Below are positions 3,401-19,893 of a DNA stretch of 22,295 nucleotides, one piece after another (positions within the stretch are counted from its first letter, which is position 1; each line of letters opens with the position of its first letter). The stretch lies in NCBI GenBank assembly GCA_040905425.1, contig JBBDRO010000015.1, forward strand, positions 1-22,295, read 5' to 3'. The DNA is from Gemmatimonadota bacterium. Lineage in GTDB: Bacteria; Gemmatimonadota; Gemmatimonadetes; Longimicrobiales; RSA9. The notes beneath the pieces were generated by a model. It was not told the origin of the DNA. It saw only the letters and a program-made list of their open reading frames with translations, and did no database searches. Both the position numbers and the translations under genes were made by a program.

Positions 3401-3646
3401 GATCTCCGCGACCCCCGGCAGTCCGTTCATGGCGACTTCGATCGGGAACGCCACCAGCCGCTCGACCTCGACCGGGGAGAGCCCCGGTGCCTCCGCGAGC
3501 ACCTGCACCTGCACATTCGTGAGATCGGGGAACGCGTCGATGCGGAGCGTACGCATCGCCCAGAGGCCGCCGGCGACCAGTACTCCGACCAGGAACAGCA
3601 CAGTCCAGCGGTTGGCTACCGCCCATTGGATCATTCGATCGATCAT
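500..3646 (-). CDS. czcA: CusA/CzcA-family heavy-metal efflux RND permease
   Basis: 1048 aa; N-terminal IDAFPDLTNVQVQV, TM4 motif AIDFGMIVDGSVVMAEN, GTEFLPELDEG, C-terminal RLRPVLMTALVASIGFIP...GAEVQRPLATVVIGG. Confidence 0.96.
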   Translation of the reverse strand: MIDRMIQWAVANRWTVLFLVGVLVAGGLWAMRTLRIDAFPDLTNVQVQVLAEAPGLSPVEVERLVAFPIEVAMNGLPGVAEIRSTSKYGFAIATVVFEDGTDLYFARTLVSERLQGVREELPPGTEAELGPLAGATSEIYLYTVEGGGLDLMELRTLHDRIIKPQLRAVRGVTEINAFGGQVRQMQVIVSPERLTGYGLTLHDVIEAVEANSRTPAGAYLETGDQQLILRGIGQAGDPDDLRRTVIRSSARGVPVVLGDVAEVRYGPEVRQGAVSRDAQGEVMSGIVMMLRGENSREVVRRVREKVEQINRSLPEGVSLSPYYDQTDLVEGTLHTIRENLLLGGFLVIAILLLFLGNLRAALIVAATIPLSLLFAMIGMRWLGLSANLMSLGAIDFGMIVDGSVVMAENYVKRLHEDEEASRFPNSRSALFARLSAVGREVGRPIGFGVLIIMLVYVPILTLQGLEGRLFRPMALTVGMALFGSLLLALLFIPAAATFLFRSGARESAYAVRLAEWLDSRYAPALRATMAHPARTIAVALLVFAGAALLVPRLGTEFLPELDEGSILIQPTRDPNISLTHSMEVAARVEEVVKRTPEVSTVVSRVGRPDVGSDPMGINQSDVFVMLNDGDEWRDGLTKTDLEAELRERLEAEVPGVAFAFTQPMKMRLDELISGVRSDLAVKVFGDDPEQNLRVAQEVAGAIRDVQGTAEVQVEQTTGQGYLTVRMDRSALARYGIPVAEVQEALEVALGGGTVAEAVDGAYTIPIAVLYPKHVRSSAEAIRGITVPSATGALIALNELADIRMETGPVQVSREQAQRLVIVQADVEGRDLGGYVADVQDAIETGVELPAGVFLGYGGQFENQERAMRRLRIVVPLSILLIALLLYGSLQSWPLALLVLTNLPFAAVGGVVALWLRDLHLSVSASIGFIALFGVAVLNGLVLLTTVQRLRQEGAGADEAALAGARERLRPVLMTALVASIGFIPVAVSQGVGAEVQRPLATVVIGGLVTSTLLTLLVLPTLYAWMERRRDRKGRVRSDASRTTSVQVG

Positions 3647-3654
3647 TCGGCGCC

Positions 3655-4845
3655 TCAGTGAGCGTGGCCGCCGAACTCGGCCTTGCCGAGCTCCGACTGC
3701 AGAGTGAATGCTCCGCGGATTACGATGCGCTCGCCGGCCGCGATTCCGGACCGGATCAGGAGCTCGCCACCACCGAGCGGCGCCACATCCACCGTGCGCC
3801 GCTCGAACGTGCGGGGGGCCACCTCCACGAAGACGTAGCGTTCCGCCCCGTCCGTCACGACAGCGCTCTCCGGGATCACCGGCCGCATCTCACGCGGCGC
3901 CGCGGCACCAGCCGAGAGCGCTACTGATGCGAACATCCCCGGGCGCAGAAGACGACGCGGGTTAGGCACCCGTATGACCGCGCGAGCCGTGCGGGTGGAC
4001 GGGTCCAGCTCCTCGCGAATACGGTCCACGGTCCCCTGGACACGCTCGTCCGGGTACGCAGAGAGCCGCACGTCTGCCGTCTGTCCGCGGCGGAGGGTCG
4101 AGAGCGCGCGCTCCGGCACTTCGGCCACCACATTCACTACCGAGAGGTCCGCCACCGTATAGATCGGGGACCCGGCCTCAACGGCGGCGCCGGTGATGGA
4201 ATGCGCCTCGACAATGCTCCCGCCGATCGGCGATCCAATCGGGAGCAGATCCAGCGGATCGCCGCCACCCGCGAGGCGCTCGACGAGCGCGTCGGTGGCA
4301 CCGAGAAGTCTGAGCCGGCGCCGCGCGGCTTCGGCCAATGCGCGCGCCCCTTCCTCGTCGCCGGTCCCCGCTAGCACCTGAGCCCGTCGCACGGACTGCA
4401 GGAAATCATTCTGCGCCGTGAGGAAGGCTGAGCTGAGCACGTACGCGAGCGGCTGACCGGCACGGACCTGGTCGCCCTCAACCGCGGTCAGGCGTTCAAT
4501 CCGCCCTCCGGTCCGGGGAGAGACGAGCACGACTCTGGAGGGATCGAACTCCACCTGCCCCGGAACGGCCGCTCCCGAGGGTTCGCCGGAGACCTCGCGA
4601 GCCGCGACTTCCGCCACTTCGATGCCGGCGTTGCGTATGGCGGCCTCGGTGAGTTCGACGCGGCCGTCCGCGCCGTCCTCATCCGCGTGCTCATCACCAT
4701 GTTCGTCGTGCTGTTCCTCGCCCGCGGCGAGCGACGGAGCCTCGTCGTCCGAGCACGCGCCCATCGAGAACGCCAGCAGTGCCAACGCGATGTGGCCGAG
4801 GCGCCGCCGAGATGTAATCAGAATGTTCTGTGTCATTGTAATCAC
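3655..4845 (-). CDS. czcB: RND periplasmic adaptor (membrane fusion protein), CzcB/CusB-like, probable lipoprotein
   Basis: 396 aa; hydrophobic N-terminus with lipobox-like MGAC, His/acidic tract EEQHDEHGDEHADED, GRIERLTAVEGDQVRAGQPL, LDPSTRTARA...LRPGMF. GTG start overlaps the upstream TGA; an ATG at 4836 is an alternative start. Confidence 0.93.
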   Translation of the reverse strand: MITMTQNILITSRRRLGHIALALLAFSMGACSDDEAPSLAAGEEQHDEHGDEHADEDGADGRVELTEAAIRNAGIEVAEVAAREVSGEPSGAAVPGQVEFDPSRVVLVSPRTGGRIERLTAVEGDQVRAGQPLAYVLSSAFLTAQNDFLQSVRRAQVLAGTGDEEGARALAEAARRRLRLLGATDALVERLAGGGDPLDLLPIGSPIGGSIVEAHSITGAAVEAGSPIYTVADLSVVNVVAEVPERALSTLRRGQTADVRLSAYPDERVQGTVDRIREELDPSTRTARAVIRVPNPRRLLRPGMFASVALSAGAAAPREMRPVIPESAVVTDGAERYVFVEVAPRTFERRTVDVAPLGGGELLIRSGIAAGERIVIRGAFTLQSELGKAEFGGHAH

Positions 4846-6158
4846 CGGCCGCCTGACGAGGCGGCGATCAGGTTAGCGAAAGCCTCCGCCGCCTGGGCGC
4901 GGGCACGCAGACGTTCGATTTCGGCGCGTGCAAGTGCACGCTCGAAATCGAGCAATTCAATCAGGGAAAGGTTGCCGGTGCGATAGGCGGCAAGCGCGCT
5001 CTCCCGCTCTTCTCGCGCGCCACGGAGGAGGGTGGCATCGAACTCAGCCAGACGTTCACGCGCCGCCTCGTAGCGGACCAGCGATCCGGCGAGACTTGCA
5101 CGGACCGTGGCGACGACCGCCGCGCGCGCCGCACGGGCGGCTTCCAGCTGCCGCTCCGCCGCGAGCTCAGCGGATTCGTTTGCATGGCGGCGGGTAAACG
5201 GTAGTGAGACGGACGCGCCGAGAACCGGGCCGAATCGGCTGTTGCCGCTTTCACCTACGGTGCGCTGGGCTCCCACAGAGGCCGCAAGCCGCGGCCGTTG
5301 CTCGGCCCGAACGACATCCAGCGTGGCGCGCGCGCGTTGAACGGTGGCTTCGGCCATTCGCACGTCGCCCGAGAGCGCCAGCAGAGAATCAAGCGAGGGG
5401 ACGGGCGGGAGCGGCTCCTCCCAGCGAGCCGATGTCGCCGTTAGCGAATCCAGTGTGCTTGCGATCAGGGGCGCGACATCGGGACCGCCAAGACCCAGAA
5501 GCGCCTCGCGAGCGACGCGCGCATCGGCGACGGCGTCGGCTCGATCGGTCTGAATGCGAAGCCGTTCTGTTCGGAGCCGGAGCACGTCCACGTACCGAGC
5601 CTCCCCAACACTGAAACGCGCACGGAGGGACCCTTCCGCAGAGAACAGGAGCGAGTCCTCACCTGCGAGCCGTCGTGCCGTACCTTTGGCCGTCCACAAT
5701 CGCGTGAGTTCCTGTACGACGCGCGCTTCGAGCCGCCGGCCCGCCGCCTGTAGACTCGCCTCTGCCGCGGCAACGTCCGCCGCCGCAAGTGCACGCGCGG
5801 CAGTACTCCGGCCGCCAGTGAGGAACTCGCGTCCGAGCTCGACGCGTATGGCAGCGCCACCGATGTCGTAGCCATTCGGCACATCCTCGATCTCGCCGGA
5901 AAGCACGACCGGACCTGCATAACCAGCGGCGGCAGCGCGGGCGCGAGCGCTCTCCAGTTCCGCACGCAGTGCCTGAAGCTCCGGGCTCGAGCGGGTAATG
6001 GTCCCGCTCAGGACGTCGTGCCCCAGCGCGGCCGCCGCCCCGCTCTCCTGTGCGGCCGCACGTGTTGCGAACGTGCTGGAACAGATCACGACGATGCAGG
6101 CGGCCGCACGAGCGGCGCACGTCGCGTAACGTCTTGTTGGTTCGTACGTGTCTCTCAT
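4842..6158 (-). CDS. czcC: TolC-family outer membrane efflux protein, CzcC-like
   Basis: Ala/Arg-rich helical repeats with RARFSVGEARYVDVL and AAYRTGNLSLIELLDFER; first gene of a C-B-A array. Start uncertain: ATG at 6158 gives a signal peptide ending in AAAQ, while the ORF extends to a GTG at 6266. Confidence 0.88.
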   Translation of the reverse strand: MRDTYEPTRRYATCAARAAACIVVICSSTFATRAAAQESGAAAALGHDVLSGTITRSSPELQALRAELESARARAAAAGYAGPVVLSGEIEDVPNGYDIGGAAIRVELGREFLTGGRSTAARALAAADVAAAEASLQAAGRRLEARVVQELTRLWTAKGTARRLAGEDSLLFSAEGSLRARFSVGEARYVDVLRLRTERLRIQTDRADAVADARVAREALLGLGGPDVAPLIASTLDSLTATSARWEEPLPPVPSLDSLLALSGDVRMAEATVQRARATLDVVRAEQRPRLAASVGAQRTVGESGNSRFGPVLGASVSLPFTRRHANESAELAAERQLEAARAARAAVVATVRASLAGSLVRYEAARERLAEFDATLLRGAREERESALAAYRTGNLSLIELLDFERALARAEIERLRARAQAAEAFANLIAASSGGR

Positions 6159-6262
6159 GATCCCAATGGGTACGTGCACCCTCGCCTGCCACGAGGACAC
6201 GTGGCGGCCGGGTCGCTGATCGGATGTAGCAGGCGGCGCGGACGAAATGCCCCCGCGTGAGG

Positions 6263-6595
6263 TCACGCCAGAGGTGGTCGCAGGGCGGGTGCGGGGGCAG
6301 GCGAAGGAATGAGGCGTTCCCGCAGAAGCGATGCGTCGCCCTCCGCGGTGGCGGCGAAGGACGCCAGGGAGAACGAAGGTGGCTCAGCCGGTTGAGCGCC
6401 GGCGCAGGCGCACGCACAGAGACACGCGCAGTCCTCGCTCTCGGCGTCCGTGTCCTCGTCAGCTGCGTCCGGGGTAGCGGTTACGTCAACAAGGAGGTGC
6501 GCGTCGGGCGCTACGTCGGGATGCTCGCCCCACAATACTTCCGTAGAGGAGATCGACAGCGTGAGCACGAGGAGCAGAGACAGGAGCCGCCGCAC
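6263..6595 (-). CDS. Small exported Cys-rich protein with C-terminal Pro-rich/RPP end (CzcI/DUF2946-like)
   Basis: From GTG 6595 (AAGGTGG upstream, 2 nt after the regulator stop): MRRLLSLLLVLTLSISSTE (signal-like), acidic tract, CACLCACAC, ending PSPAPAPALRPPLA. Confidence 0.72.
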   Translation of the reverse strand: MRRLLSLLLVLTLSISSTEVLWGEHPDVAPDAHLLVDVTATPDAADEDTDAESEDCACLCACACAGAQPAEPPSFSLASFAATAEGDASLLRERLIPSPAPAPALRPPLA

Positions 6596-6597
6596 GA

Positions 6598-6963
6598 TCA
6601 GGCCACCTTTCGACCGCCGCAGTGCGGACATGTAGCTGTCGCATCGGCGAGTCCGCCGAGCAGATCGTCGGCCGCGCCGAGTAGCTTCTCAACGCGTGTC
6701 CCGCCGAGGCGATAGAAAACGTGGCGACCGCGTTGCTCCCGTTCCACCAGTCCGCATCCGAGCAGGCACGCCAGGTGATTCGAGACATTGGATTGCGCCA
6801 AACCCGTTGCTCGCACCAGTTCACCCACGCTCTGCTCGCCACTCCGGAGTGTTTCGAGGATGGCGAGGCGGGATGCGTCCGCTAGCCCGCGGAGCAGTCG
6901 CGTCTTGGCGTCGATGCCGCTCTGCAGGCCGGCGTTGTCCTGGTGAGCGCAAGCCGTGTTCAT
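6598..6963 (-). CDS. ArsR/SmtB-family metal-sensing repressor, CmtR-like
   Basis: LADASRLAILETLRSGEQSVGELVRATGLAQSNVSNHLACLLGCGLVEREQRGRHVFYRL plus C-terminal CPHC. ATG at 6963 is preferred over the longer ORF start at 7116. Confidence 0.92.
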   Translation of the reverse strand: MNTACAHQDNAGLQSGIDAKTRLLRGLADASRLAILETLRSGEQSVGELVRATGLAQSNVSNHLACLLGCGLVEREQRGRHVFYRLGGTRVEKLLGAADDLLGGLADATATCPHCGGRKVA

Positions 6964-6980
6964 ATCAGCGGAAGATGATA
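6963..6980. promoter_or_regulatory. Inverted repeat TATCA-N8-TGATA, likely autoregulatory ArsR operator overlapping a -10-like TATCAT (minus strand) and the start codon
   Basis: tatca gcggaaga tgata at 6963-6980, directly at the regulator's ATG. Confidence 0.6.
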
Positions 6981-7166
6981 CGATCCCGAGTGGTGCGCAA
7001 GACAGGCTGGACGGCCGGTGTTCCGGTCTGCCGGCGTGCTCACCCGTGACCGGCAAGGCCCACGAGCTCGCAGGATCTGGCTGGTCGCTCCGGGATTGTG
7101 TCACACGAGCCGTCACAGATGCGAAGCGATGTGCAGGCAGAGCAACAACTTACACCCTGAAGCCCA

Positions 7167-7194
7167 GAGGGTTCGAGTCCCTCCACCTCCGCTA
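7167..7194 (+). mobile_element. 3' fragment of a tRNA (Ser-like): probable att-site remnant of an integrative element
   Basis: GAGGG-TTCGAGT-CCCTC (perfect T arm) + CACCTCC + G + CTA in place of CCA. No matching 5' acceptor strand, D arm or anticodon arm upstream. Confidence 0.7.
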
Positions 7195-7214
7195 GGCTGG
7201 TTGAAGGACGGTTA

Positions 7215-7244
7215 GCGCCCGCCATCAATCGTGCGGGCGTTCTG
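7215..7244 (+). terminator. GC-rich hairpin downstream of the tRNA fragment, possible weak intrinsic terminator
   Basis: gcgcccgc-catcaatcgt-gcgggcgt followed by only a short T-containing tail (tct). Confidence 0.4.
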
Positions 7245-7249
7245 CATCC

Positions 7250-7269
7250 GGTGGAGGGTCTCGACCCCT
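7250..7269 (-). repeat. Inverted imperfect copy of the tRNA 3' fragment
   Basis: ggtggagggtctcgacccct matches the reverse complement of 7168-7187 (ggtggagggactcgaaccct) at 18 of 20 positions. Confidence 0.8.
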
Positions 7270-7385
7270 TGCGTCTTCGCTACGCGAGCGGCGCGCGCCG
7301 GGCCGGCCTCCGGCGCCAACGCCGCAACACCTTGCGACGATCTGGAACGCTCTGAGTTTTCCGCGCGTCGTCGCGCGGTTGAGCC

Positions 7386-7413
7386 ATTATATTGTATACT
7401 GTATTCAGTATAC
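7386..7413. promoter_or_regulatory. Perfect palindrome GTATACTG-tatt-CAGTATAC (operator-like) next to a minus-strand TATAAT
   Basis: Palindrome at 7394-7413; attata at 7386-7391 reads TATAAT on the minus strand; AT-rich patch in a very GC-rich background. Confidence 0.55.
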
Positions 7414-7590
7414 CGGCGGGCATTTTCGGAACTTCTGTATCGGATGCTGCGCCGAAATACGTTCAGCCCCAAAGGAAAGCGGCTGTATAGCAGTATGAAA
7501 CAGATGTTCTAACACCAGGCGGGGAGTCTCGTTCTTCGAGCACGCCGGCGGATGGTGGTTGCCCCGGACGGGGGCGGGTCGGCCGCGCGC

Positions 7591-8061
7591 CTACTTCAGA
7601 CTCTTCAGCGTGCCGAACATCATGTTGTAGTGCCCCGGATAGAGGCAGACGAAGAAGTAGTCGCCGGCGGGGGGCATCACGAAGGTGATCTCCACGGTGG
7701 CGCCCGGCACGGCCAGGTCACTGTAGGCAATCATGCGGTCGGCGTGCTCGAGGGGGACGTAGCCGGTGTCCTTGGCCTGGAAGGCGGCGGGGCCGAGCAC
7801 GTCGATGTCCGCCTCCTCCTTCACCAGCACGAAGTTGTGCGGCAGCGTGCCGTCGTTGATGTAGCGCACGGTCACACGGGTGCCCTGCCGGGCCGAGATG
7901 TGGTCCGGCTCGAAGGTCATGTTGCTGCCGGTGGTGCGCAGCGTGATGACCGTATCCGGCGCCTCCTGGGCGCTGGCGGCCCCGGCGCCGGCGCCGATGC
8001 CTGGCCCAGGTGCGGCCAGCAGCAGTGCCGCGGTGAACAGGGTGCGGCCGGTGATGCTCAT
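7591..8061 (-). CDS. Periplasmic type-1 blue copper protein (azurin/auracyanin/plastocyanin family)
   Basis: 156 aa from ATG 8061 with GAAGGA RBS; signal peptide; copper ligands in LPHNFVL and CLYPGHYNMM. Confidence 0.92.
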   Translation of the reverse strand: MSITGRTLFTAALLLAAPGPGIGAGAGAASAQEAPDTVITLRTTGSNMTFEPDHISARQGTRVTVRYINDGTLPHNFVLVKEEADIDVLGPAAFQAKDTGYVPLEHADRMIAYSDLAVPGATVEITFVMPPAGDYFFVCLYPGHYNMMFGTLKSLK

Positions 8062-8083: not shown

Positions 8084-11000
8084 TCATCTGAACAGGTCGG
8101 GCATCCCCCAGCGTGCCGCCACACGCGCGAAGCCGTCCGCCATCGCCGCCGGTGCCGAGCGCGCGGCCGCCGCCAGGGCGGCACGTTGCTCGGCCGAAAG
8201 CGTGGGCGGCTGCTCCTCGGGCCAGCCACCGCGGGTGTCGATGCCGCGGCGTCCGCGCCGCTCCTCACCGTCGTCGGCGATCCCCGCGATGCCCACGAAG
8301 ACCGCCTCGGCCAGCGCCGGGTTGGCCTCGGGCACGGCCTGCAGGAGCGCCACCACGGCGGCCGCGTTCTCCGCTGCGGCGAAGTGGATGGTCATACGCC
8401 GGAGCGTGGCCTGGATTCCCGCCATGGCCGCGCTGTCGCGCTCCGGCAGGCGCTCCCGGCCGAGCAGCGCGAGCGCGGCGTCAGGGCCCTGCTGGATCCC
8501 CGCCATGGCGGCGGCGTCCGGCAACCAGCGGTCGCGCGCGTTGCCGGGCACGGTGATCAGCTCCACGACGGCGTCCACCGCCCGTTGCGAGGGCGGCAGC
8601 TCCGCCACGGCGAGCAGGGCGTCCAGCCGTACGTGCGGATCGGCGTCCTGAAGCACGGTGTTGCCCACTGTATACTCGACATCGTGCGGCGAGGTCCGGT
8701 CGGGGAGCATGCCGGCGGCGAAGATGCCGTCCAGCAACCGTTCGTCCCGCGGCAGCGCCGCGAGCGCGGCCCTGCGCAGGGCGGAAGCTGGATGATGGAG
8801 CGCTAGCCGCGCGGCGTCGCTTGCATCCGTATCCGCCTCGAGGGCGCCGAGACCATGCAGCGTCCAGAGCGCGTGCAGGGCGCCCGGGTTCAGCCCCAGG
8901 GCGTCCACCGTGTGGTCGCGCAGCAGTTCGGTGAGCGCCGGCACCACGTCCGTCCGCCCGCGCTCCACGAGCAGGCGCTGGGCCGTCAGGCGCCAGAACA
9001 GGTTGTCATCCGTGAGCGCCGCCACGAGCCGCGCCGGGGTGGCGCCGGCCAGGCTGGTGGTGGCCTGCGGCGGGGCGTCCTCGTACACCACGCGGTAGAT
9101 GCGGCCGTGGATCTTGTCCCGGTTGGGCGTCTCGTAGGCGTTGCCGGGGCCCAGTTCCGTGCCCTCGGGGGTGGGGTTGTGCTGCGCCACGAGCGAGTAG
9201 AAATCGGAGATCCAGACGGCGCCGTCGGGACCGACCTTGACCTGCACCGGCGCCTGCCACGCGTCGCGGCTGGCCACCAGGTTCCAGCGGTTCAGGGCGC
9301 GGAAACCGGTGCCCTCCGGCTCCAGCTCGAACATGCCGACCAGGTGGGCGGTGGGCTCCGCCACGAACGCCGCGCGGTTCCAGTACTCTGACGGGAAGGC
9401 GCGCGCCGTGTAGATCTCGTGCGCGGAGCCGGCGGTGTACATGCCGAACTGATCCACCTGGTAGATGTTGCGCAGCGGGTAGACGTCCTCGCGGTCGGCG
9501 ATGCGGGGCAGCGTGGGCGTCTCGCCGAGCAGGCGGCGATAGTGGCGGCCCGGGATGTGGACGAAGTTGCTGGCGTTCCGGTTGGCGGTGGAGCCGAACA
9601 CGTGCCCGTCCTCGGTGAAGCCCAGGCCCCAGGTGTTGTTGCTCGTGCGCGCCACGTAGTCCAGGAAGGAGCCGTCCGGCGCGAAGCGGAAGTAGCCGGC
9701 GCCCATGGAGACGGCGTCCACCCCCCGGCCGAAGGTCACGCCGCCCACCGTGCCGCGGAAGCCGTTGTAGCCCACCGAGCCCCAGAGCTGGTTGTCGAAG
9801 CCGTAGCGCAGGTTGCTGATGGTGCCGTGCGTGTCTCCGCGCGGCCAGCCGGTGAAGAGCACCTGGCGCTCGTCCGCCACGTCGTCCCCGTCCGTGTCCC
9901 GGAAGAACAGCATGTGCGGCGCCTGGCCCACGACCAGCCCGCCGTTGGCGAAGGCCAGGCTGGTGGCCAGGTTCATGCCGTCGGCGAACACCGTGGTCTC
10001 GTCCGGCCGGCCGTCCCCGTCCGTGTCCTTCAGGATCAGGATGCGGTCGTTGCCGGGCTCGCCCTCCGGCAGGACCGTGTTGGGATAATCCACCGTCTCC
10101 ACGGCCCACATGCGGCCGCGCTCGTCCCAGGTGAAGTCGATGATGTTGCGGATGGTGGGCTCCGCCGCGTAGGGCTCGATGCGGAAGCCGGGGCGTGCGG
10201 TCATGAGGGCATAGGACTCGTCCGGCGGGAGCGCCACCTGCGCGGTGTCCACCATTTCCCTGAGCGTGTTCCACGGCGCGGGCGGCGGCTCGTAGACGGG
10301 CAGCCCGACCTCGAGGCGCTGCACCGGCGGCTGCGGCTCATCCAGCCGCTGCGCCAACGCCCAGTCCCCCGCGCTCCACTTGAGCGCCTGCGTGAGCAGC
10401 TGCTGGAAGCCCTCGTTGCCCCAGGTGCGCTGATCGTGGCCCCAGGCCGTGTAGAAGACCCGCCCCTCCCCGTAGGAGCGCACCCAGCTCCACGGCTCGT
10501 CGTGGCCGTCCAGGCTGCGCACCTCCAGCACCGTGCGATCCGGGTTGTGCTTGGTGTGGATGTAGGTTTCGTCCCAGCTCTCGAAGGTGGGCACGCCGCG
10601 CACGACGGGATGGTTGGGCGCCGTGCGTGTGGCGCGGAAGGTGCCCGTGCCGTGGCTCTTGAAGGCGGCGCCCACCAGCCGGATGAACGCCTCCGAGTTC
10701 TGGAAGGAGGCGGAGGCGCTGTGCAGCACCACCAGGCCGCCGCCGCTCTCCAGGAAGTCACCGAGCGCCGCGAACTGGTCATCCGAGATGGCGGGCTGGT
10801 TGTTGTAGAAGATGAGCGTGTGGTAGCGGTCCAGGACCTCCGGATCCAGATCGGCCGGATCCTCCGTGAAGACCATGTCGATGCCGTTGTGGGCCAGCAC
10901 CGGCAGGATCTCCTTGGCGCGCACGTGGGGCCGGTGGTGGCCCTGGTCCCCCAGGAAGAGCGCCTGGACGCGGCCGCCGTCCGGCGCCTGGGCCAACAGC

Positions 11001-12628
11001 GGCGCGGGCGCCGCGAGCGCGCCCAGCAGCAGCGCCGCCGGCACCAGCAGCGCCGTGTGGACCCCGGCGTGGGGCGGCATTCCCTCCGGCGTCCGTTCCA
11101 GCCGCACGGCACGGTAACCGCCGCGGCGGCGGTCGCTCAGGTACATGCTGCCGAAGACCAGGATGAGAATGAGCGCGGCGGGCGCGATGTAGCGGAAGGA
11201 CTTCTGGCCGCCCATGGCTTCGGCCGGCTGCAGGATGGCGTTGGCCTCCCCCACGAGCGGCTCGTCGGGGATGGCGGTGGCCACCACGGCGCGCAGGGCG
11301 TTGGCCGTGGCGTCGTGCTGCACGCTGCCCGTTGCTGCCAGCTCTGCCAGCGCCGTCCGGGTGGCCTCGAGCGCGTCGCGCACCTCGGCCTCGCGGTAAC
11401 CCAGCTCCGCGAGGTCGGTGGTGGCCTGCGCCCGCTCGATGTAGGCGGGGAAGGTGGCGTCCACCTCCTGCAGGAGCGCGGTGGTCTCCGCCGGCGGCAG
11501 CTCCTCGGCCAGATAGCCGTCCGCCAGCTTGCCCATGAGCGGCACGCCCACCGCGCCGGCCGCGGCCAGCCCCACGCCCGCCGTGAGCACGATGCCGAGC
11601 GAGCCGGTCCTGGGTAGACGCTCACTCACGGTGCCCACCATGGTGGGGAAGAAGAAGGCCACGCCCCAGGCGAACACGGTGGCTGCCGCCAGCGCGCTCC
11701 AGAGCCCCGTCACGAAGCTCATGAGGAAGAGGCCAGTGCCGGTCAGGACGGACGCGCCGAGCAGCATGCCGGGAGGCGAGAACCGCTCCACGAAGCCGCT
11801 GGCCAGCAGCCGCAGCACCACCATCCAGCCGCTGATCCACACGAGCACCAGGATGCCGTGCATGCCCACCGCCTGGAGCACCGCCGGGATCCAGCGCATG
11901 GGCCCGAGCTCCAGCGACGTGGTGATGGCCATCATGGCCAGCATGAGCAGGAAGAGCGGGTTGGTCAGCGTGTAGCGGAACATTTCCCCCACCGGGACGC
12001 CCGCCTCCGCGTTCTCCGTCTTCGGAAACGGCTGCAGCAGGATCATGTAGCCGTAGATGAGCACGGGGACGTAGACCACCGCCAGCTGATAGGGCCAGTA
12101 TCCGAATGCCCCTCCCCAGTTGTCCAGGACGAAGCCGGCCAGCCCGCCCAGGATAATGCCGATGGGGAAGAAGGCGTGGAAGTAATTCAGCCGCGTGGTC
12201 TTGCTCTCCGGATAGAGCGCGGCGGCGAGGGGGTTGCCCGTCACCTCGATCATGCCGTTGCCCATGGCCAGGATGGCGGCACCGCTCATGAGGATCCAGA
12301 AGGCGGACGGATCGCCCACCCGCAGCACGGCCGAGATGAGCAGCGTGAGCCCCACGAGGTGGCCGGCAAAGGCCAGCCGCGCGCCGTTCTTGAGCCCGAA
12401 GCCTTCCAGCAGCGGGCCCAGCACCAGCAGCGAGATGGCCATGCCCCACAGCGCCGCGCCGGCAATGAGCCCCACCTGGTAGTTGGTCAGGATGAACTCC
12501 TGCTTCAACTGGACGAGCACGTTGCTCACCAGGCCGAAGGAGGCGCCCGTGGGGATGAGGGCCAGGCAGATTCCCGTGAAGAGGCGGCGCCGGTCCACGC
12601 GGGCCGGCTGAGCGCTGAGTTCGGCCAT
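8084..12628 (-). CDS. Fusion protein: MFS transporter + ThuA-like domain + PVC-type membrane-bound-dehydrogenase beta-propeller + helical (HEAT-like) repeats
   Basis: Uninterrupted 1514-aa ORF. About 12 hydrophobic helices in the first ~500 aa. ThuA-like GGGLVVLHSAS...WDETYIH...WVRSYGEGRVFYTAWGHD. Propeller FTWDERGRMWAVETVDYPN, DTDGDGRPD, DTDGDDVAD, NNTWGLGF, GPDGAVWISDFY, GRIYRV. Helical LTDDNLFWRLTAQRLLVE, LHALWTLHGLG. Confidence 0.88.
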   Translation of the reverse strand: MAELSAQPARVDRRRLFTGICLALIPTGASFGLVSNVLVQLKQEFILTNYQVGLIAGAALWGMAISLLVLGPLLEGFGLKNGARLAFAGHLVGLTLLISAVLRVGDPSAFWILMSGAAILAMGNGMIEVTGNPLAAALYPESKTTRLNYFHAFFPIGIILGGLAGFVLDNWGGAFGYWPYQLAVVYVPVLIYGYMILLQPFPKTENAEAGVPVGEMFRYTLTNPLFLLMLAMMAITTSLELGPMRWIPAVLQAVGMHGILVLVWISGWMVVLRLLASGFVERFSPPGMLLGASVLTGTGLFLMSFVTGLWSALAAATVFAWGVAFFFPTMVGTVSERLPRTGSLGIVLTAGVGLAAAGAVGVPLMGKLADGYLAEELPPAETTALLQEVDATFPAYIERAQATTDLAELGYREAEVRDALEATRTALAELAATGSVQHDATANALRAVVATAIPDEPLVGEANAILQPAEAMGGQKSFRYIAPAALILILVFGSMYLSDRRRGGYRAVRLERTPEGMPPHAGVHTALLVPAALLLGALAAPAPLLAQAPDGGRVQALFLGDQGHHRPHVRAKEILPVLAHNGIDMVFTEDPADLDPEVLDRYHTLIFYNNQPAISDDQFAALGDFLESGGGLVVLHSASASFQNSEAFIRLVGAAFKSHGTGTFRATRTAPNHPVVRGVPTFESWDETYIHTKHNPDRTVLEVRSLDGHDEPWSWVRSYGEGRVFYTAWGHDQRTWGNEGFQQLLTQALKWSAGDWALAQRLDEPQPPVQRLEVGLPVYEPPPAPWNTLREMVDTAQVALPPDESYALMTARPGFRIEPYAAEPTIRNIIDFTWDERGRMWAVETVDYPNTVLPEGEPGNDRILILKDTDGDGRPDETTVFADGMNLATSLAFANGGLVVGQAPHMLFFRDTDGDDVADERQVLFTGWPRGDTHGTISNLRYGFDNQLWGSVGYNGFRGTVGGVTFGRGVDAVSMGAGYFRFAPDGSFLDYVARTSNNTWGLGFTEDGHVFGSTANRNASNFVHIPGRHYRRLLGETPTLPRIADREDVYPLRNIYQVDQFGMYTAGSAHEIYTARAFPSEYWNRAAFVAEPTAHLVGMFELEPEGTGFRALNRWNLVASRDAWQAPVQVKVGPDGAVWISDFYSLVAQHNPTPEGTELGPGNAYETPNRDKIHGRIYRVVYEDAPPQATTSLAGATPARLVAALTDDNLFWRLTAQRLLVERGRTDVVPALTELLRDHTVDALGLNPGALHALWTLHGLGALEADTDASDAARLALHHPASALRRAALAALPRDERLLDGIFAAGMLPDRTSPHDVEYTVGNTVLQDADPHVRLDALLAVAELPPSQRAVDAVVELITVPGNARDRWLPDAAAMAGIQQGPDAALALLGRERLPERDSAAMAGIQATLRRMTIHFAAAENAAAVVALLQAVPEANPALAEAVFVGIAGIADDGEERRGRRGIDTRGGWPEEQPPTLSAEQRAALAAAARSAPAAMADGFARVAARWGMPDLFR

Positions 12629-12661: not shown

Positions 12662-12689
12662 TTGGCGCCCGAGGGGGGCACGCTATAAT
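12662..12689 (+). promoter_or_regulatory. Sigma70-like promoter for the cupin operon
   Basis: TTGGCG (12662-12667), 16 nt spacer, TATAAT (12684-12689) in the 128-nt divergent intergenic region; AGGAG RBS at 12744-12748. Confidence 0.6.
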
Positions 12690-12756: not shown

Positions 12757-13194
12757 ATGAGCCCGGATGGTCCGCAGCGCTTCGTCACCGCCCATGAGAT
12801 GGAGGTGGAGGAACTGCCGTGGGGACCGCACGAATGGCTCTCGCGTCCCGGCCTCACGGCGGCCGAGGAGCTGTTGCTCGTGCGGGTGCGCATGCCGCCG
12901 GGCACCGGTCACGCCTTCCACCGCCATCCCGCCATGGAGGAGATCATCTACGTGATTTCCGGGACGGCGGAGCAGTGGGTGGAGCGCGAGTCACGCACGC
13001 TGCGGGCGGGCGAGAGTGCCCACATCCCGCGCGACGTTGTGCACGGCACCTACAACGCCGGCGCCGACACGCTCGTCTTCCTGGCCATCCTCTCCCCGGC
13101 GCAGTTCGACGGGCCCGCGCTCGTGGACGTGGCGGACGAGGAGCCGTGGCGCTCGCTGCGGCCGGTGGACGGCGACCGGCGGCCGGCCGGCTGA
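12757..13194 (+). CDS. Cupin domain protein (metal-binding)
   Basis: 145 aa; motif 1 HAFHRHPAMEEIIYVISG and motif 2 LRAGESAHIPRDVVHGTYN; clear RBS. Confidence 0.9.
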   Translation: MSPDGPQRFVTAHEMEVEELPWGPHEWLSRPGLTAAEELLLVRVRMPPGTGHAFHRHPAMEEIIYVISGTAEQWVERESRTLRAGESAHIPRDVVHGTYNAGADTLVFLAILSPAQFDGPALVDVADEEPWRSLRPVDGDRRPAG

Positions 13195-13205: not shown

Positions 13206-14423
13206 GTGGCGAACACGATCCTGCTGCCGGGGACGCTCGACACCAAGGGGCGGGAATACGCCTACGTGCGCGACCTCATCACGGCGCGCGGCCACGACGT
13301 GCTGGTGATGGACCTGGGGATCCAGGGGGAGCCGGCCTTCGCGCCCGACGTGGCGGCGGACGAGGTGGCGCGGCGCGGTGGCACGGCGCTGGAGGAGCTG
13401 CGCGCCCGCGGTGACCGGGGCTCCGCCGTGGAGGTGATGCTGGCCGGCGCGCGGACGCTCGCCGCGGAGCTGTACGAGCAGGGTCGCTTCGATGCCGTGC
13501 TGGGCATGGGCGGCGGCGGCGGCACCACCATGATCACGGCCGCCATGCGTGCCCTGCCCGTGGGGGTGCCCAAGGTGATGGTCTCCACCATGGCCTCCGG
13601 CAACACGGCGCCGTATGTGGACGTCAAGGACATCACCATGATGTTCTCCGTGGTGGACGTGGCCGGGCTGAACCCGCTCTCCCGGCGCATCCTGGCCAAC
13701 GCCGCGGGCGCTGTCTGCGGCATGGTGGAGCAGGAGGTGCCGAGCGCGGCGGATCGACCGCTGCTGGCGGCCACCATGTTCGGCGTCACCACCCCCTGCG
13801 TGGACGCGGCGCGGGCGCGCCTGGAAGCGGCCGGCTACGACGTGCTCGTCTTCCATGCCACGGGGTCGGGCGGGCGCGCCATGGAGGGCCTCATCCGGGA
13901 CGGCTACTTCGCGGGGGTGCTGGACGCCACCACCACGGAATGGTGCGACGAGGTGGTGGGGGGTGTGCTCGCGGCCGGGCCCGACCGGCTCACGGCGGCC
14001 GGGCAGGCGGGCGTTCCGCAGGTGGTCTCGGTAGGCGCGCTGGACATGGTCAACTTCGGCGCGCTGGACACGGTGCCCGAACGGTTCCGCGCGCGCACGC
14101 TGTACCGGCACAATCCCACCGTCACGCTCATGCGCACGAGCCCGGAGGAGTGTCGCGAGATCGGCCGGCGCATTGCCGAGCAGCTCAACCATGCCACCGG
14201 CCCCGTGGTCCTGGTGCTGCCCCTGCGCGGCGTCAGCATGCTGGACGCCGAGGGACAGCCGTTCGATGACCCGGAGGCCGACCGTGCGCTCTTCGAGGCC
14301 CTCGAGCTGCACACGGGCCAGGCGGTGCGCATCCTGGAAATGGACGCCCACATCAACGATCCCGTCTTTGCCGAGACCCTCGCGGACGAGCTGCTGCGTC
14401 TGGTCTCCCCACCCGAGGAGTAG
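13206..14423 (+). CDS. Tm-1-like ATP-binding domain protein (UPF0261)
   Basis: GTG at 13206 after GGGAGG; GTLDTKGRE, GMGGGGGT, LPVGVPKVMVSTMASG, MFGVTTPCV, FHATGSGGRAME, GALDMVNFG, HNPTVTLMRT, HINDPVFA. Confidence 0.92.
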   Translation: MANTILLPGTLDTKGREYAYVRDLITARGHDVLVMDLGIQGEPAFAPDVAADEVARRGGTALEELRARGDRGSAVEVMLAGARTLAAELYEQGRFDAVLGMGGGGGTTMITAAMRALPVGVPKVMVSTMASGNTAPYVDVKDITMMFSVVDVAGLNPLSRRILANAAGAVCGMVEQEVPSAADRPLLAATMFGVTTPCVDAARARLEAAGYDVLVFHATGSGGRAMEGLIRDGYFAGVLDATTTEWCDEVVGGVLAAGPDRLTAAGQAGVPQVVSVGALDMVNFGALDTVPERFRARTLYRHNPTVTLMRTSPEECREIGRRIAEQLNHATGPVVLVLPLRGVSMLDAEGQPFDDPEADRALFEALELHTGQAVRILEMDAHINDPVFAETLADELLRLVSPPEE

Positions 14424-14431
14424 AACCGCAC

Positions 14432-15271
14432 ATGCCTTTCATCGGCTATCAGGAGTGCCTGCGGCGGCTGCGCGCCCAGGTGGAGGCGGGCAGTCCGATC
14501 ATTGGCGCGGGCGCCGGCACGGGCATCTCGGCCAAGTTCGCCGAGCGCGGCGGCGTGGACCTCATCATCATCTACAACTCGGGCCGCTTCCGCATGGCGG
14601 GGCGCGGCAGCGCGTCCGGCATGATGCCCTACGGAGACGCCAACGAGATCGTGGTGGACATGGCCCGCGAGGTGCTGCCCGTGGTGCGGGACACGCCGGT
14701 GCTGGCGGGCGTGTGCGGCACCGATCCCTTCCGCCTCATGCGCGTCTTCCTGCCGGAGCTCAAGGCCATGGGCTTCGACGGCGTGCAGAACTTCCCCACC
14801 GTGGGGCTCATCGACGGGCAGTTCCGGCAGATCCTGGAGGAGACGGGCATGAGCATCCAGCTGGAGGTGGACATGATCCGCCAGGCGCACGAGCTGGAGA
14901 TGCTCACCTGCCCCTACGCCTTCGATGAGGACACGGCCCGGCGCTTCGCGGAGGCGGGCGCGGACGTGGTGGTGGCGCACGTGAACACCACGGTGGCCGG
15001 CTCCATCGGCGTGCAGACCGCCGCCATGAGCCTGGACGAGGCCGTGGAGCGCGTGCAGGCCATCCACGACGCCGCTCGGGCGGTCAATCCGGAGGTCATG
15101 GTGCTCTGTCACGGCGGTCCGATCGCGCAGCCCGAGGACGCCCAGTACGTGCTGGAACGCACCAGCGGCGTGGCGGGCTTCTTCGGTGCTTCCAGCATCG
15201 AGCGGCTGGCCACGGAGCCCGCCATCGAGGCGCAGACCCGCCGCTTCAAGGAACTGAGGGTGAACGCGTGA
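14432..15271 (+). CDS. Phosphoenolpyruvate hydrolase-like TIM-barrel protein (homolog of the Tm-1 C-terminal domain)
   Basis: 279 aa; GAGAGTGISAKFAERGGVDLIIIYNSGRFRMAGRGS, GVQNFPTVGLIDG, LCHGGPI, GFFGASSIERL. Confidence 0.92.
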   Translation: MPFIGYQECLRRLRAQVEAGSPIIGAGAGTGISAKFAERGGVDLIIIYNSGRFRMAGRGSASGMMPYGDANEIVVDMAREVLPVVRDTPVLAGVCGTDPFRLMRVFLPELKAMGFDGVQNFPTVGLIDGQFRQILEETGMSIQLEVDMIRQAHELEMLTCPYAFDEDTARRFAEAGADVVVAHVNTTVAGSIGVQTAAMSLDEAVERVQAIHDAARAVNPEVMVLCHGGPIAQPEDAQYVLERTSGVAGFFGASSIERLATEPAIEAQTRRFKELRVNA

Positions 15272-17355
15272 ACCGCTTCTGCGCCGCCCTGCTCCTGGCG
15301 CTCGGAACGCCGCTGGCGGGGCAGCAGCCGCCGCCGCCAGAGCGGGTCGTGACCATCGATTCGCTCGTCGTCATCGCGGAGCGTGAAGCGACGACGCTCT
15401 CCTCCTCGACCGCGGCCGTCTCCGTGCTCACGGCCGATCAGCTCGCCCGCATTCCGCAGGTCACGCTGGCGGACGCCCTGCGGCAGGTACCCGGCTTCGC
15501 GGTGGTGGGCTTCGACGGCCTGGGCTACGACCCGCAGCTCATGGTGCGCGGCTTCTACGGCGGCGGCGAGGCGGAGTACGTGGTGGTGCTGGTGGACGGC
15601 CAACCGTTGAACGACCTGCCCGGCGGGCGCGTGCCGTGGGACGCCATACCGCTGGAACGCGTGGCGCGCGTGGAGATCGTGCGTGGGAGCGCCTCCCCGC
15701 TGTGGGGGGACGCGGCGCTCGGCGGCGTCATCAACGTGATCACGCGGCGGCCAGGAGCGGGGGCGCTCGGCTGGAGCCTCGCGGCCGGCTCGCACGGCAC
15801 GTGGCGCGGCAGCGGGGACGCGCACACGCGCGTGGCGGGTCGTGATCTGACGGTGTACGGCGGCCTCGACCGCACCGACGGCTATCGCACGCACGCCGCG
15901 CGTACGGCCGGCCGCGCCGGGGCCACCCTGGCACTGGCCAGCGGACCCGCAGGCTCCCTGGAGCTCCGGGCGCGCACGCACTGGCGCCGCTTCGACGAGC
16001 CCGGACCGTTGCTCGGCAGCGCCGCGGAGCTGGATCCCGCGGCCTCGGACGTCTTCTTCCGCTTCGACGAGACGGACGAGCGCGGCTACCGTCTTGGCCT
16101 GGACGGCAGCCGGATGCTCGGCGCGCGGGCGCGGCTGTCGGGCTCCGTGCTCGGGGAGCTGCGGGACGTGGCGGCCGTCCGCACGCTGGCACTGGCCCCC
16201 GACTTCGCCGACACGCAGGCGCGCGATCTGGGTACGAGGCGGGCGCTGGCCACCACGCAGCTGGCCATCGAGAACACCGGCCTGCCTGTCGCGGACCGGC
16301 TGATCGTGGGTGTGGATGCCTCCTTCGGCACGCTGGATTCGGAGTACCACGTGATCCTGCGCGGTGACCGGAGCGCCTACGAGGGTGCTCCCGGTGGGCC
16401 CGGCGAGCTGGACGCTGCCGGCAGCGGCGAGCGGAGCGCCGCCGCGGCGTTCGTCCAGTATGCGCTGCTGCCCGCGGAAGCGGTGCGGGTCTCCCTGGGC
16501 GTGCGCGCGGATTGGCTGCGCGACGCCTACGAGGCGCGGGCGCCCGAGCCGGGCGAGCGGATCGATGCCACGCACACGGCCGTCAGTCCGCGCCTGGGCG
16601 TCAACGTGGCCTACGTGGACACGGATGCCCACGATGGGCACGTGTATGCGTCGGCGGGCCGCTCCTTCAAGGCCCCCACCCTGGACCAGCTCTTCGACCA
16701 GCGCCGGCTGCCGGTGCCCTTCCCCCCGTTCGCCGTGACCACGTCCAACGAGCTGCTGGAGCCGCAGCGCGGCACCAGCCTCGAGGTGGGCCTCTACCAC
16801 GGGGTGTCCCGACCGGGCGGCCTGCACGCCGCGCTCTCCGTGGCCGCCTACCAGATGGACATGGAGGACGAGCTGGACTTCAGCATCCAGGAGCTGCGCT
16901 ACGTGAACATCGGGCGCAGCCGCCATCGTGGCGTGGAAGCCGGGCTCGCGCTTACGAGCTCCGATGCCGCCACGCTCTCCCTCAACTACACGCGCCAGGC
17001 CGTGACGGCGCGCGCGGGCGAGCACGCCGGCCGCGTGCTCAAGGCCATCCCCGGCCACTTCCTGAGCGGCGGGCTGGGTACGATGTTCGGCGAGCTCGAG
17101 GTGGGCCTCCTGGTCAGCCACGCCCGGGACATCTGGCTGGATGACGCCAACACGCTGCGGCTGCCCGCCTTCACGCGCGTGGACGCACGGGCCTCGCATC
17201 CGCTGGCCGGCATGCGCCTCTTCCTGGACGTGCGCAACGTGCTGGACGCGGCGTACAGCACCACGGGCTTCCCCGACCCGAGCGGCTCGGGCGCCATGTA
17301 CTACCATCCCGCCGCGGGTCGCACGCTCGACCTGGGCGTGCGCGGCGGCTCCTGA
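15268..17355 (+). CDS. TonB-dependent outer membrane receptor
   Basis: 695 aa; signal peptide; plug domain [10 protein letters not shown]...VRGF...[10 protein letters not shown]...[26 protein letters not shown]; barrel motifs [36 protein letters not shown] overlap with the upstream gene. Confidence 0.92.
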
Positions 17356-18794: not shown

Positions 18795-19879
18795 CCACGC
18801 TCCGGCCGACCAGCGTGGAGGATGTGGTCGAGGCGGTGCGGGCGAACGAAAGCGTGGTGCCGCACGGTCAGCGCACCAAGGCCCCGCTCGTGGCGGTGCA
18901 CGGCGCCGCCGTGGGGCTGGACATGCGCGGCCTGAGCGGGGTGAGCCAGTACGACGCCGGGGAATTCACCTTCACGGCGCTGGCCGGCACGCCGCTAGCC
19001 GAGCTCGAGACGCTGCTCGCCGCGCACGGGCAGTACATGCCGTTCGATCCGCCGCTCGCTGACGCAGGCGCCACCCTGGGCGGCTCGGTGGCGGCCGGCC
19101 TGAACGGCTCGGGCAGGCTGCGCTACGGCGGTGTGCGGGACTTCATCATCGGCGTGGCCTTCGTGGACGGTACCGGGCGCCTGGTGCACGGCGGCGGGCG
19201 CGTGGTCAAGAACGCGGCCGGCTTCGACCTCCCCAAGCTCATGGTGGGCAGCATGGGCAGACTGGGGGTGCTGACGGAGCTCAGCTTCAAGGTGTTCCCC
19301 GCCCCGCCGGCGTGGTGCACGCTGCGCGTGGCGTGCACGGATCTGGAGGACGCGCTGGACCGGATCGGCGCGCTCGGCCGCATGCCCCTCGACCTGGAGG
19401 CCCTGGACCTGGAGCCGCCCGCCCGGCTGGTGATCCGCGTGTCCGGCCGGGAGGACGCCCTGGCAACCCACGCGCGCCGTGTGGGTGAGGCCACCGGGCG
19501 CCCGTACGACATCCTCACCGGTGCGGAGGACGCCAGCTACTGGCGCACCCAGCGGGCGTTCGCCTGGGTCGAGCCCGGGGCGTGGCTGATCAAGGTGCCG
19601 CTCACGCCACGCCAGGTGCCCGAACTGGAAACCGAACTGGCTCGGCAGGATGTCCCGCGGCGCTATGGCGTGGCCGCGAACGTGGCATGGCTCTCGTGGC
19701 CCGCGGAGCGCCCCCTGACCGAGCTGTCGCTGAACGGTCTGGCCGGCCTGGTGGTGCGTGGCCCGGAGCTGCGGGGCGCCTCCCCGTGGGTTGGCCTGCC
19801 CGCGGCCGCCGCCGCGCCGTTCGCGCGCGCCGTCAAGGGCGCCCTCGATCCCCGGCAGCGCCTGCCGGCGCTGGTCTGA
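18791..19879 (+). CDS. glcE: Glycolate oxidase subunit GlcE-like FAD-binding protein
   Basis: 362 aa; [62 protein letters not shown] overlap with glcD. Confidence 0.9.
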
Positions 19880-19893
19880 CTACGGGCAACACC

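Follow-up and report, generated by a model that had tools for sequence, protein, structure and literature searches.

An MFS transporter fused in frame to a ThuA and dehydrogenase-type propeller protein through a signal-peptide-like segment in a Gemmatimonadota bacterium

The closest described relatives of the protein studied here are the PVC-type proteins of Planctomycetota, Verrucomicrobiota and Bacteroidota (such as Lac161_ORF7, AGW45552), which are exported and carry ThuA, TIGR02604, HEAT-repeat and cytochrome c parts. In a 22,295-nt stretch of DNA from a sediment bacterium of the Gemmatimonadota (the window, by which the whole stretch is meant), we analysed a gene at 8084..12628 on the minus strand whose product follows the same domain order and is 41-50% identical to these proteins over ~820 residues. 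It differs from them in that no cytochrome c domain or CxxCH motif is present, a cupredoxin is encoded by a separate gene, and a transporter of the major facilitator superfamily (MFS) is fused in front. An earlier note on this DNA had stated that proteins joining ThuA to the TIGR02604 (DUF7133) propeller normally occur as standalone exported proteins, and the database relatives agree. For the three-part architecture itself, no published description was found in the literature on ThuA/PF06283, DUF7133/TIGR02604 and MFS fusions.

A second point of comparison is offered by the soluble pyrroloquinoline quinone (PQQ) dehydrogenases of PF07995, a family to which E. coli YliI/Asd and A. calcoaceticus sGDH presumably belong. 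Their six-bladed propeller is homologous to the one encoded here over 274 columns, and the His of their HxG motif corresponds to that of a DTHG motif. Unlike them, the present protein has extra DxDxD loops and attached ThuA and HEAT parts, does not conserve the HRN Arg, and is passed over by the Pfam model. For the transporter half, FucP of the FHS family is both the best solved and the best curated match. The Glu of transmembrane helix 4 (TM4) and the NP motif are kept, whereas the score lies far under the FucP equivalog cut-off, D46 is replaced by Ser, a 111-aa insert, predicted to be periplasmic, separates TM11 from TM12, and a 13th hydrophobic segment with a 970-aa, presumably periplasmic extension has been added.

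FbcH of Bradyrhizobium japonicum is a cytochrome b-c1 precursor whose internal signal peptide is cut (our literature search gave nothing relevant on it). It likewise holds a polytopic membrane protein and a periplasmic redox protein in one frame; the protein families are different, and cleavage, established there, is a prediction here. In Pseudomonas, periplasmic glucose oxidation proceeds through Gcd, then the MFS transporter KguT, then a kinase. The logic of periplasmic oxidation, MFS import and intracellular phosphorylation would be the same as that proposed below, but its proteins show at most a distant relationship to those studied here, and there is no fusion among them. As for ThuA, its partner ThuB is presumably a member of the Gfo/Idh/MocA family. 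According to PMC8121099, ThuA of Sinorhizobium and Agrobacterium works with a dehydrogenase that converts disaccharides to 3-keto-disaccharides; here the partner would instead be a periplasmic sGDH-like propeller, and a Pfam scan of the main open reading frames (ORFs) of the window gave no ThuB-like gene.

The fusion gene is a single ORF of 1514 aa that starts with ATG and has no internal stop; it encodes in turn an MFS transporter, a signal-peptide-like link, and ThuA, DUF7133 and HEAT parts, all on the minus strand. In Pfam, MFS_1 (PF07690) matched aa 21-356 (8.6e-18; 64.8 bits against a cut-off of 33.4), ThuA (PF06283) aa 562-751 at 10376..10945 (8.2e-40; 137.7 bits against a gathering score of 33.4) and DUF7133 (PF23500) aa 802-1184 at 9077..10225 (6.2e-105; 352 bits against 27). 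The NCBIfam model TIGR02604 matched aa 814-1183 with 227.3 bits, the curated cut-off being 122.2. A HEAT-repeat region, identified by a profile match to HEAT/alphaRep chains, fills aa 1185-1514 (8087..9076). Hydropathy gave the order TM1-TM11 (aa 16-362), acidic loop (369-479), TM12 (480-498), Arg-rich loop (499-526) and 13th hydrophobic segment (527-545). Hence one frame does join a 12-helix MFS transporter to ThuA, a propeller and helical repeats, as the earlier note had it, and its coordinates are good to within a few codons. The MFS end that it gave, nt 11135, is the exact end of TM12 by hydropathy (aa 498); its two DxDxD[G/D] loops are DTDGDG (aa 868-873, nt 10010-10027) and DTDGDD (aa 911-916, nt 9881-9898); and its helical repeats are HEAT repeats, the family profile matching the alphaRep designed HEAT proteins at 7.8e-23. 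The whole protein contains a single Cys.

The DNA is ~70% GC, and an unrelated 732-aa frame overlaps the fusion gene on the opposite strand, so long ORFs by themselves would be weak evidence. The gene is taken as real because of its domain E-values and its conservation. A database search with the MFS part alone, restricted to proteins of 832-2650 aa, gave 113 matches, and 111 of them hold PF07690, PF06283 and PF23500 in one protein (the window protein and 110 others). These fused proteins are 61-96% identical to the query, nearly all 1412-1611 aa long (one is truncated at 1239 aa), and originate from JGI, ENA, NCBI and Logan assemblies. Clustering at 90% identity leaves 110 clusters besides that of the window protein, so in metagenomes this architecture is no rarity. 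Such sequences are already public under automatic names, among them 'putative membrane-bound dehydrogenase-like protein' and 'PVC-type heme-binding CxxCH protein [Gemmatimonadaceae/Gemmatimonadales]', and no paper on the architecture was found.

Among 401 genomes of the window's order (its own, G000, and 400 others sampled), an uninterrupted match across the junction was observed in four, namely G000, G042, G375 and G300, and the named public record DAIUET010000006.1 is also fused. A 1154-nt Logan contig from a second sample of the same study covers 10716-11600 with 2 substitutions and no indels, while Logan contigs from the likely source sample cover 10997-11600 without any difference. P0002, a protein of other assemblies, shares 96% of its residues with the window protein over the MFS part and 92% over the enzyme part, and its junction is the same. 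No RNA run was found to carry the junction stretch, runs with a small share of it being left aside. The fusion is not an assembly error. It is real, as the earlier note had supposed, and conserved, whether judged by architecture (111/113 matches), by the junction in related genomes (4/401) or by the second-sample contig, which spans the junction without an indel. The fusion gene is also the sole DUF7133 copy and the sole ThuA copy in its genome (96.7% complete), in which no other whole-protein match was found.

The origin of the fusion can be read from split relatives. Separate head-to-tail gene pairs were present in G148, G193, G065, G064 and G113, with MFS proteins 64-86% and enzymes 57-74% identical to the window, and a split adjacent pair was also seen in Acidobacteriota, Arcicella gelida and a Flavobacteriales metagenome-assembled genome (MAG). 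Parapedobacter deserti KCTC 52416 is another cultured bacterium with the split pair. In G022 a more distant MFS gene occupies the same place beside the enzyme gene. In the split forms, the MFS protein ends ~10 residues past a conserved ...GGYRAVRLE motif, and the enzyme begins with its own Met and a signal peptide that ends in x-x-A/QAP (the slash marks the predicted cut) or in a lipobox. A DNA alignment with G148 showed that ~120 nt are gone in the window, corresponding to the MFS tail, the stop codon and the spacer, and that the old start codon and the whole signal peptide are kept in frame. Deletion of the MFS stop codon and spacer would thus have produced the fusion. The endpoints of the deletion differ between junctions: G042 has a larger deletion than the window, and in the main fused clade the join is compact, RLE[RK] running straight into the hydrophobic core. 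G148 and G016 are unpublished genomes, on which the split junction of G148, its DNA alignment and the G016 gene order given below depend. G148 had been a candidate for a fourth fused genome, with a 1552-aa open frame reported by the search tool; its translation has an in-frame stop and a separate start, and it was counted as split.

The nearest relatives of both halves are unfused. Besides P0002 (92%), the enzyme part is closest to unfused proteins of ~1000 aa (67-78% identical), the large fused clade reaching 61-66%. The MFS half is closest to standalone permeases (84-88%), several of which lie on the same contigs as unfused enzymes. The earlier note had allowed that close relatives might carry two separate genes and that reads might reveal an assembly error; the first part turned out true, for the closest relatives are split, while the contigs confirm the frame of the window. 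In a FastTree phylogeny of 164 rows (P0019, P0136, P0152 and P0159 were left out as too short or without the motif), the window and P0002 fell in a starred 26-row clade together with 23 unfused rows and P0003. With an IQ-TREE mixture model on a chosen 45-row subset, both fell in a starred 16-row clade of which 13 rows are unfused, and in the MFS tree (231 rows) the window was placed in a starred 14-row set with 11 unfused rows. The approximately unbiased (AU) test rejected a single group of all 21 fused rows (delta lnL 298, p-AU 3e-53). As the closest relatives of both halves are unfused and a single fused clade is rejected, the window's lineage probably fused independently and recently, and the trees read as at least two fusion events, possibly three. 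Two points weigh against this reading: the group used in the AU test was defined after the first tree had been seen, and some 'unfused' rows within the fused clade lie on contigs of <4.1 kb and are probably fragments of fused genes. As a separate observation, the 1049-aa P0147, encoded on a 17 kb contig, resembles the product of a fused gene minus TM2-TM11 of the MFS part; a TM1-like start and TM12 with a GYRAVRL motif still precede its signal peptide and ThuA domain.

We then consider the junction. The Arg-rich loop after TM12, DRRRGGYRAVRLE... (aa 499-526; 11051..11134), is predicted to be cytoplasmic and holds the relic start codon of the enzyme, M517 (ATG at 11078-11080), preceded by GGAGGG at 11082-11087. 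From this codon runs the 13th hydrophobic segment, a retained signal peptide by hydropathy and by comparison with unfused orthologues (M517...LLVPAALLLGALAAPAPLL-A546/Q547-A-P; 10985..11080). The loop DRRRGGYRAVRLER that follows the MFS end is strongly positive, and the loop motif is kept in all 111 fused proteins. The predicted topology is coherent, with the MFS part ending inside the cell and the next segment crossing outward like a signal peptide. Signal peptides have a positive n-region, an h-region of 7-15 residues and small residues at -3/-1, with no Pro at +1. By these rules an internal signal-peptide pattern is present here, comprising the RRRGGYRAVRLER loop, an h-region at aa 527-545 and L-L-A546/Q547; unfused orthologues have the same h-region, then x-x-A/QAP. 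Since a 12-helix MFS part with both termini inside runs into an intact signal peptide, the enzyme part is predicted to lie in the periplasm.

Among the 111 fused proteins, the longest stretch free of charged residues that follows the motif measures 17 residues at the median (<=18 in 95), and in 101 it sets in 0-3 aa past RLE. A small-x-small pair stands at its end in 98, a lipobox-like [..][..][GAS]C occurs in 15, and the stretch ends in Gln in 49. The signal peptides of unfused orthologues likewise have a median of 17 residues (range 13-21), with a lipobox in 5; here 34 of 45 orthologues were measured, 11 being skipped for want of an N-terminal Met or of the motif. Because these length statistics match, the segment seems to have kept the character of a signal peptide rather than become a membrane anchor. 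The cut in the window would fall after A546 because Pro follows AQA, which counts against cleavage to some degree, as the Pro forces the cut one residue before the obvious site. On balance, we lean towards a chain that is a precursor and is still cut at the junction.

The alternative is a permanent tether, in which the segment is a 13th transmembrane anchor that is never cut and the product is handed directly to the permease. The frame is kept across 111 diverged proteins, the window segment consists of 19 strongly hydrophobic residues with only ~10 residues between it and the ThuA domain, and 7 of the 111 have neither a small-x-small pair nor a lipobox near the end of the stretch. However, the stretch keeps both the length of a signal peptide and the x-x-A/Q ending, a lipobox-like Cys is kept in 15 members of a family with almost no other Cys, and the hydrophobic core of the main clade, ~10-12 residues and then Pro, is in our judgement short for a stable helix. 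We consider the tether a serious but less probable rival of cleavage.

The claim that one polypeptide couples oxidation to uptake is therefore not borne out, as the link is the enzyme's own signal peptide and the halves may be cut apart after insertion. In the precursor that we prefer, signal peptidase I would cut after A546, and the lipoprotein pathway would serve the 15 lipobox variants. Fusion would then enforce 1:1 synthesis and co-insertion at one translocon without a permanent tether. More tentatively, the protein may be regarded as a transporter-enzyme polyprotein: the permease would act as the 'n-region' that exports a 100-kDa oxidoreductase through the same translocon, a cut by signal peptidase I or II would follow, the arrangement would have evolved repeatedly, and permease, orphan ThuA-DUF7133 enzyme and cupredoxin would form one oxidative sugar-uptake unit.

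The enzyme half was compared with known folds. The family profile matched the ThuA-like chains 1t0b, 4e5v and 4jqs. When the family alignment of the propeller was compared by hhalign with 22 PF07995 (GSDH) domains taken from published relatives, the whole domain was matched (Prob 96.2%, E 2.5e-9, 274 columns); against a single GSDH sequence the match was weak (18.8%). The invariant catalytic His of GSDH (HxG) aligns to H934 of DTHG, a residue that hardly varies among 78 sequences. Homology of the propeller to PQQ-type glucose/sorbosone dehydrogenases is thus supported, and the dehydrogenase-type fold named in the earlier note stands on this homology, on the aligned His and on the carrier domains borne by 29 of 36 relatives (see below). 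Several points weigh against the reading of the propeller as a PQQ-type redox enzyme. The Pfam GSDH model gives no match to the propeller even at E 10, the fold assignment comes from profile comparison only, and the HRN Arg, which we take to be a PQQ ligand, aligns to Asn. In the 96.7%-complete genome PqqC was not found, a weak negative because the PqqC control was also silent, and no PqqE above cut-off was found, the matches being generic radical-SAM ones. Four ordinary GSDH genes are present in the genome. A PDB sequence search with the propeller gave no match. ESM Atlas neighbours (L-sorbosone dehydrogenase, TrAA12, GSDH; 0.80-0.85) lay under the trusted level and were kept as a lead only.

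A likely electron acceptor is encoded nearby. The cupredoxin gene (7591..8061, minus strand; 156 aa with its own signal peptide) lies 22 nt downstream of the fusion gene. Its PF00127 match (1.6e-9) scored 38.5 bits against a cut-off of 21.2, and the azurin equivalog cut-off was not reached (38 vs 105 bits). The copper ligands LPHN...C-x3-H-x3-M (His, Cys, His, Met) are visible here and in related loci. A homologue follows the enzyme gene in nine loci (G042, G375, G300, G148, G193, G065, G145, G101 and G255), and in G084 it is fused to the C-terminus of the enzyme; none was found at the G064 or G113 loci, and the G022 contig ends. A search for the family gave 15,304 matches at E<=1e-3 among 1.84 billion representatives. 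We scanned the 36 representatives of at least 1008 aa among the 150 best. All 36 have ThuA and DUF7133; 19 end in cytochrome c, 10 in cupredoxin and 7 in neither. In 80 wider genomic loci (Planctomycetota, Verrucomicrobiota, Bacteroidota, Acidobacteriota and others), a cupredoxin homologue is just downstream or fused in 37. Such switching between cytochrome c and cupredoxin, both one-electron carriers, speaks for a redox function of the enzyme.

In Pfam, the fusion protein has no Cytochrom_C match, and CxxCH is found in neither the window protein and its fused relatives (111 proteins) nor 45 unfused close relatives. Because the motif is missing from the window protein and its 155 close relatives, the NCBI name 'PVC-type heme-binding CxxCH protein' is a misnomer for this branch. 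The cupredoxin probably stands in for the cytochrome c domain of the relatives and is proposed as the electron acceptor. The earlier note, correct about the fused parts, had missed this downstream gene, the absence of a heme motif and the divergent operon described below. Two further arrangements were met. In a Vicinamibacteraceae MAG, a ThuA-DUF7133 and cupredoxin pair is followed, 4 kb further downstream, by another DUF7133 protein (L079:14757-17837), which has HEAT and cytochrome c parts but no ThuA, so that both carrier kinds occur in one locus. In L004 (G016), the order enzyme, cupredoxin, 34%-identical MFS is a third arrangement of the three genes.

The MFS core (TM1-TM12, aa 16-498; 11135..12583) belongs to the superfamily by its 12 hydrophobic segments ahead of the junction and its MFS_1 score above cut-off, and is FucP-like. 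Its nearest solved chain is FucP (3o7p/3o7q, 8e-6), and the standalone orthologues that are 84-88% identical are named 'fucose permease' by JGI. D46 and E135 of FucP presumably form the proton-coupling pair; E135 has its equivalent in E128 (GMIEVTGNP), and D46 aligns to S35. The FucP equivalog NF007524 scored 27.4 bits against a cut-off of 427, and NCBIfam provided no better name for the transporter, the cupredoxin or the receptor described below. The 111-aa loop between TM11 and TM12 (aa 369-479; 11192..11524) is acidic, with 19 D/E against 7 K/R, and is predicted to be periplasmic by the N-in rule. It contains no Pfam family above cut-off and is also present in split and more distant MFS orthologues. 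A second, different fusion of the same permease was observed in P0319 (668 aa, ENA), a 79%-identical orthologue with the neighbouring cupin fused at its cytoplasmic C-terminus.

A divergent operon lies on the plus strand beside the fusion gene. A sigma-70-like promoter, TTGGCG-16-TATAAT, matches the consensus at 10 of 12 positions (12662..12689; a consensus match only). The first gene encodes a 145-aa cupin (12757..13194; PF07883, 7e-18), followed by a UPF0261 gene of the Tm-1/MarK family (13206..14423; PF06792 and PF23189; NF002674, 601 bits against 335), a PEP-hydrolase-like TIM-barrel gene (14432..15271; PF09370, 3.3e-126) and a TonB-dependent outer-membrane receptor with plug and barrel domains (15268..17355). 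Cupin copies 67-85% identical stand beside MFS or enzyme genes in 8 related loci, and UPF0261 does so in 9, in 7 of which the PF09370 gene was confirmed. Beyond the order, the cupin/UPF0261/PF09370 triad is beside the enzyme in 3 of the 80 wider loci, one each from Acidobacteriota, Rhodothermales and Planctomycetota. UPF0261 and its TIM-barrel partner co-evolve, as stated in PMC5028733. The receptor, also present at the G042 and G145:C70 loci, is small (695 aa) and of BtuB/siderophore/PqqU type rather than SusC type, with NCBIfam subtype matches far under cut-offs. As PQQ synthesis genes were not found, it is conceivable that it serves as a cofactor importer.

Loci of relatives point to carbohydrates. 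At G084, a row of genes contains SusC/SusD, enzyme-cupredoxin, MFS, a small ThuA, the triad and a 3-keto-disaccharide hydrolase. Two other related loci have GH31 genes at their flanks, CBM_4_9 domains occur in 5 of the 36 representatives, and sulfatases stand beside the enzyme gene in a Rhodothermales locus. In Arcicella gelida DC2W the order is FecR, SusC, SusD, DUF3823, MFS, enzyme-cupredoxin, ThuA and Gfo/Idh/MocA, continuing with a xylose-isomerase-like TIM barrel, GH78, a GH130-like gene and GH2, which reads as a polysaccharide-utilisation locus. These contents (SusC/D, glycoside hydrolases, carbohydrate-binding modules, sulfatases) support the carbohydrate link made in the earlier note. 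Homologues of both the Gfo/Idh/MocA and the TIM-barrel genes of Arcicella occur in 25 of the 80 wider loci, a count without control. According to 10.1101/2024.03.25.586180 and PMC8121099, glycosides in gut Bacteroides are oxidised and then undergo elimination and hydration through the joint action of these two families and DUF1080.

From the parts list, the homologies and the gene linkages, we conclude that the fusion is genuine and probably a component of a conserved catabolic module for oxidative sugar uptake; its substrate, cofactor, direction of electron flow and cleavage are the predicted elements. A glycan or glycoside would enter through the TonB-dependent receptor, and the ThuA-propeller enzyme, most likely of PQQ type, would oxidise the sugar or glycoside in the periplasm. 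The cupredoxin would take the electrons to the respiratory chain, and the FucP-like permease would import the oxidation product or a released sugar. Inside the cell the cupin, the UPF0261 kinase-family protein and the PF09370 TIM barrel may then process the import. Some counts speak against a fixed link between these genes. An MFS gene of this kind adjoins the enzyme in only 5 of the 80 wider loci, and a sister family has MFS orthologues without the enzyme. The 3-keto-disaccharide hydrolase, which we had considered as a regular neighbour, was ruled out in this role: it occurs in 0 of the 80 loci and beside the enzyme in 1 related locus, and in the window's genome it is on another contig.

Instead of a simple carbohydrate, the substrate may be of another kind, such as a phenolic or aromatic compound or a glycoside of one, on which the cupin and the UPF0261 kinase would act inside the cell. 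According to PMC12624787, the only known UPF0261 activity is that of MarK, an ATP-dependent kinase on acetovanillone and related aromatics, so the single characterised member phosphorylates aromatics and not sugars. The cupin, GlcDEF-like oxidase and two-domain glyoxalase/dioxygenase-superfamily genes in the window would also suit such a substrate. Nevertheless, the FucP-like MFS, the CBM, SusC/D, glycoside hydrolase and sulfatase genes around relatives and, according to PMC8121099, the tie of ThuA to disaccharide oxidation in rhizobia make this alternative unlikely.

The periplasmic part could also be a glycoside hydrolase of a new family, the MFS part importing the released sugar. Lactose was hydrolysed by purified Lac161_ORF7, a protein with TIGR02604, HEAT and cytochrome c parts, at a Km of 1.8 mM (PMC5342196). 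This beta-galactosidase activity, and not a dehydrogenase one, is the family's only biochemistry and a point against the oxidative module. TIGR02604 is also named among putative beta-propeller glycoside hydrolases in a taxonomic paper. On the other hand, a plain hydrolase would have no need of the one-electron carrier domain that 29 of 36 relatives bear, the propeller shares ancestry and the catalytic His with PQQ dehydrogenases, and oxidation, elimination and hydration can mimic hydrolysis, as 10.1101/2024.03.25.586180 indicates. The Lac161_ORF7 activity fits either a hydrolase or an oxidation-elimination route, and we judge the hydrolase still less probable than an aromatic substrate. An artefact (a stop codon lost by sequencing error) or separate translation from the internal ATG at 11078-11080 is very improbable: although the closest relatives are split and the relic ATG with its preceding GGAGGG is kept, the second-sample contig and the diverged P0002 share the frame, GGAGGG stands 1 nt from the ATG, a spacing too short for efficient ribosome binding, the start codon and n-region are gone from most junctions of the main clade, and neither half has another copy in the genome.

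The remaining genes of the window frame this locus. Beyond the receptor, 17424-22091 (plus strand) encodes GlcD/GlcE/GlcF-like FAD/Fe-S oxidase genes and then the two-domain glyoxalase/dioxygenase-superfamily gene; at the G148 and G145 loci, too, GlcD-like genes lie alongside. On the minus strand, an RND efflux operon at 500-7116 comprises an AcrB-type pump (500-3646), a membrane-fusion protein (3655-4845), an outer-membrane factor (4842-6266) and an ArsR-family regulator gene (6598-7116). In G042, too, this set of RND genes comes after the fusion gene. Between the ArsR and cupredoxin genes, ~470 nt (7117-7590) are of somewhat lower GC (0.648 for 7001-8000), and no Pfam family was found in the ORFs scanned there. 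Searches of the window for tRNAs and Rfam families gave no match.

ThuA plus DUF7133 proteins form a very large family without an assigned physiological role. Three independent fusion links, MFS-enzyme, enzyme-cupredoxin/cytochrome c and MFS-cupin, point the same way; from them the likely partners of the enzyme are a permease of FucP type, an acceptor of single electrons, and the cupin, UPF0261 protein and TIM barrel of the cytoplasm. Should the junction be cut, a polytopic transporter and an exported enzyme would here share one precursor, an arrangement of which bacteria offer few examples. The family thereby becomes testable in cultured carriers such as Arcicella gelida.

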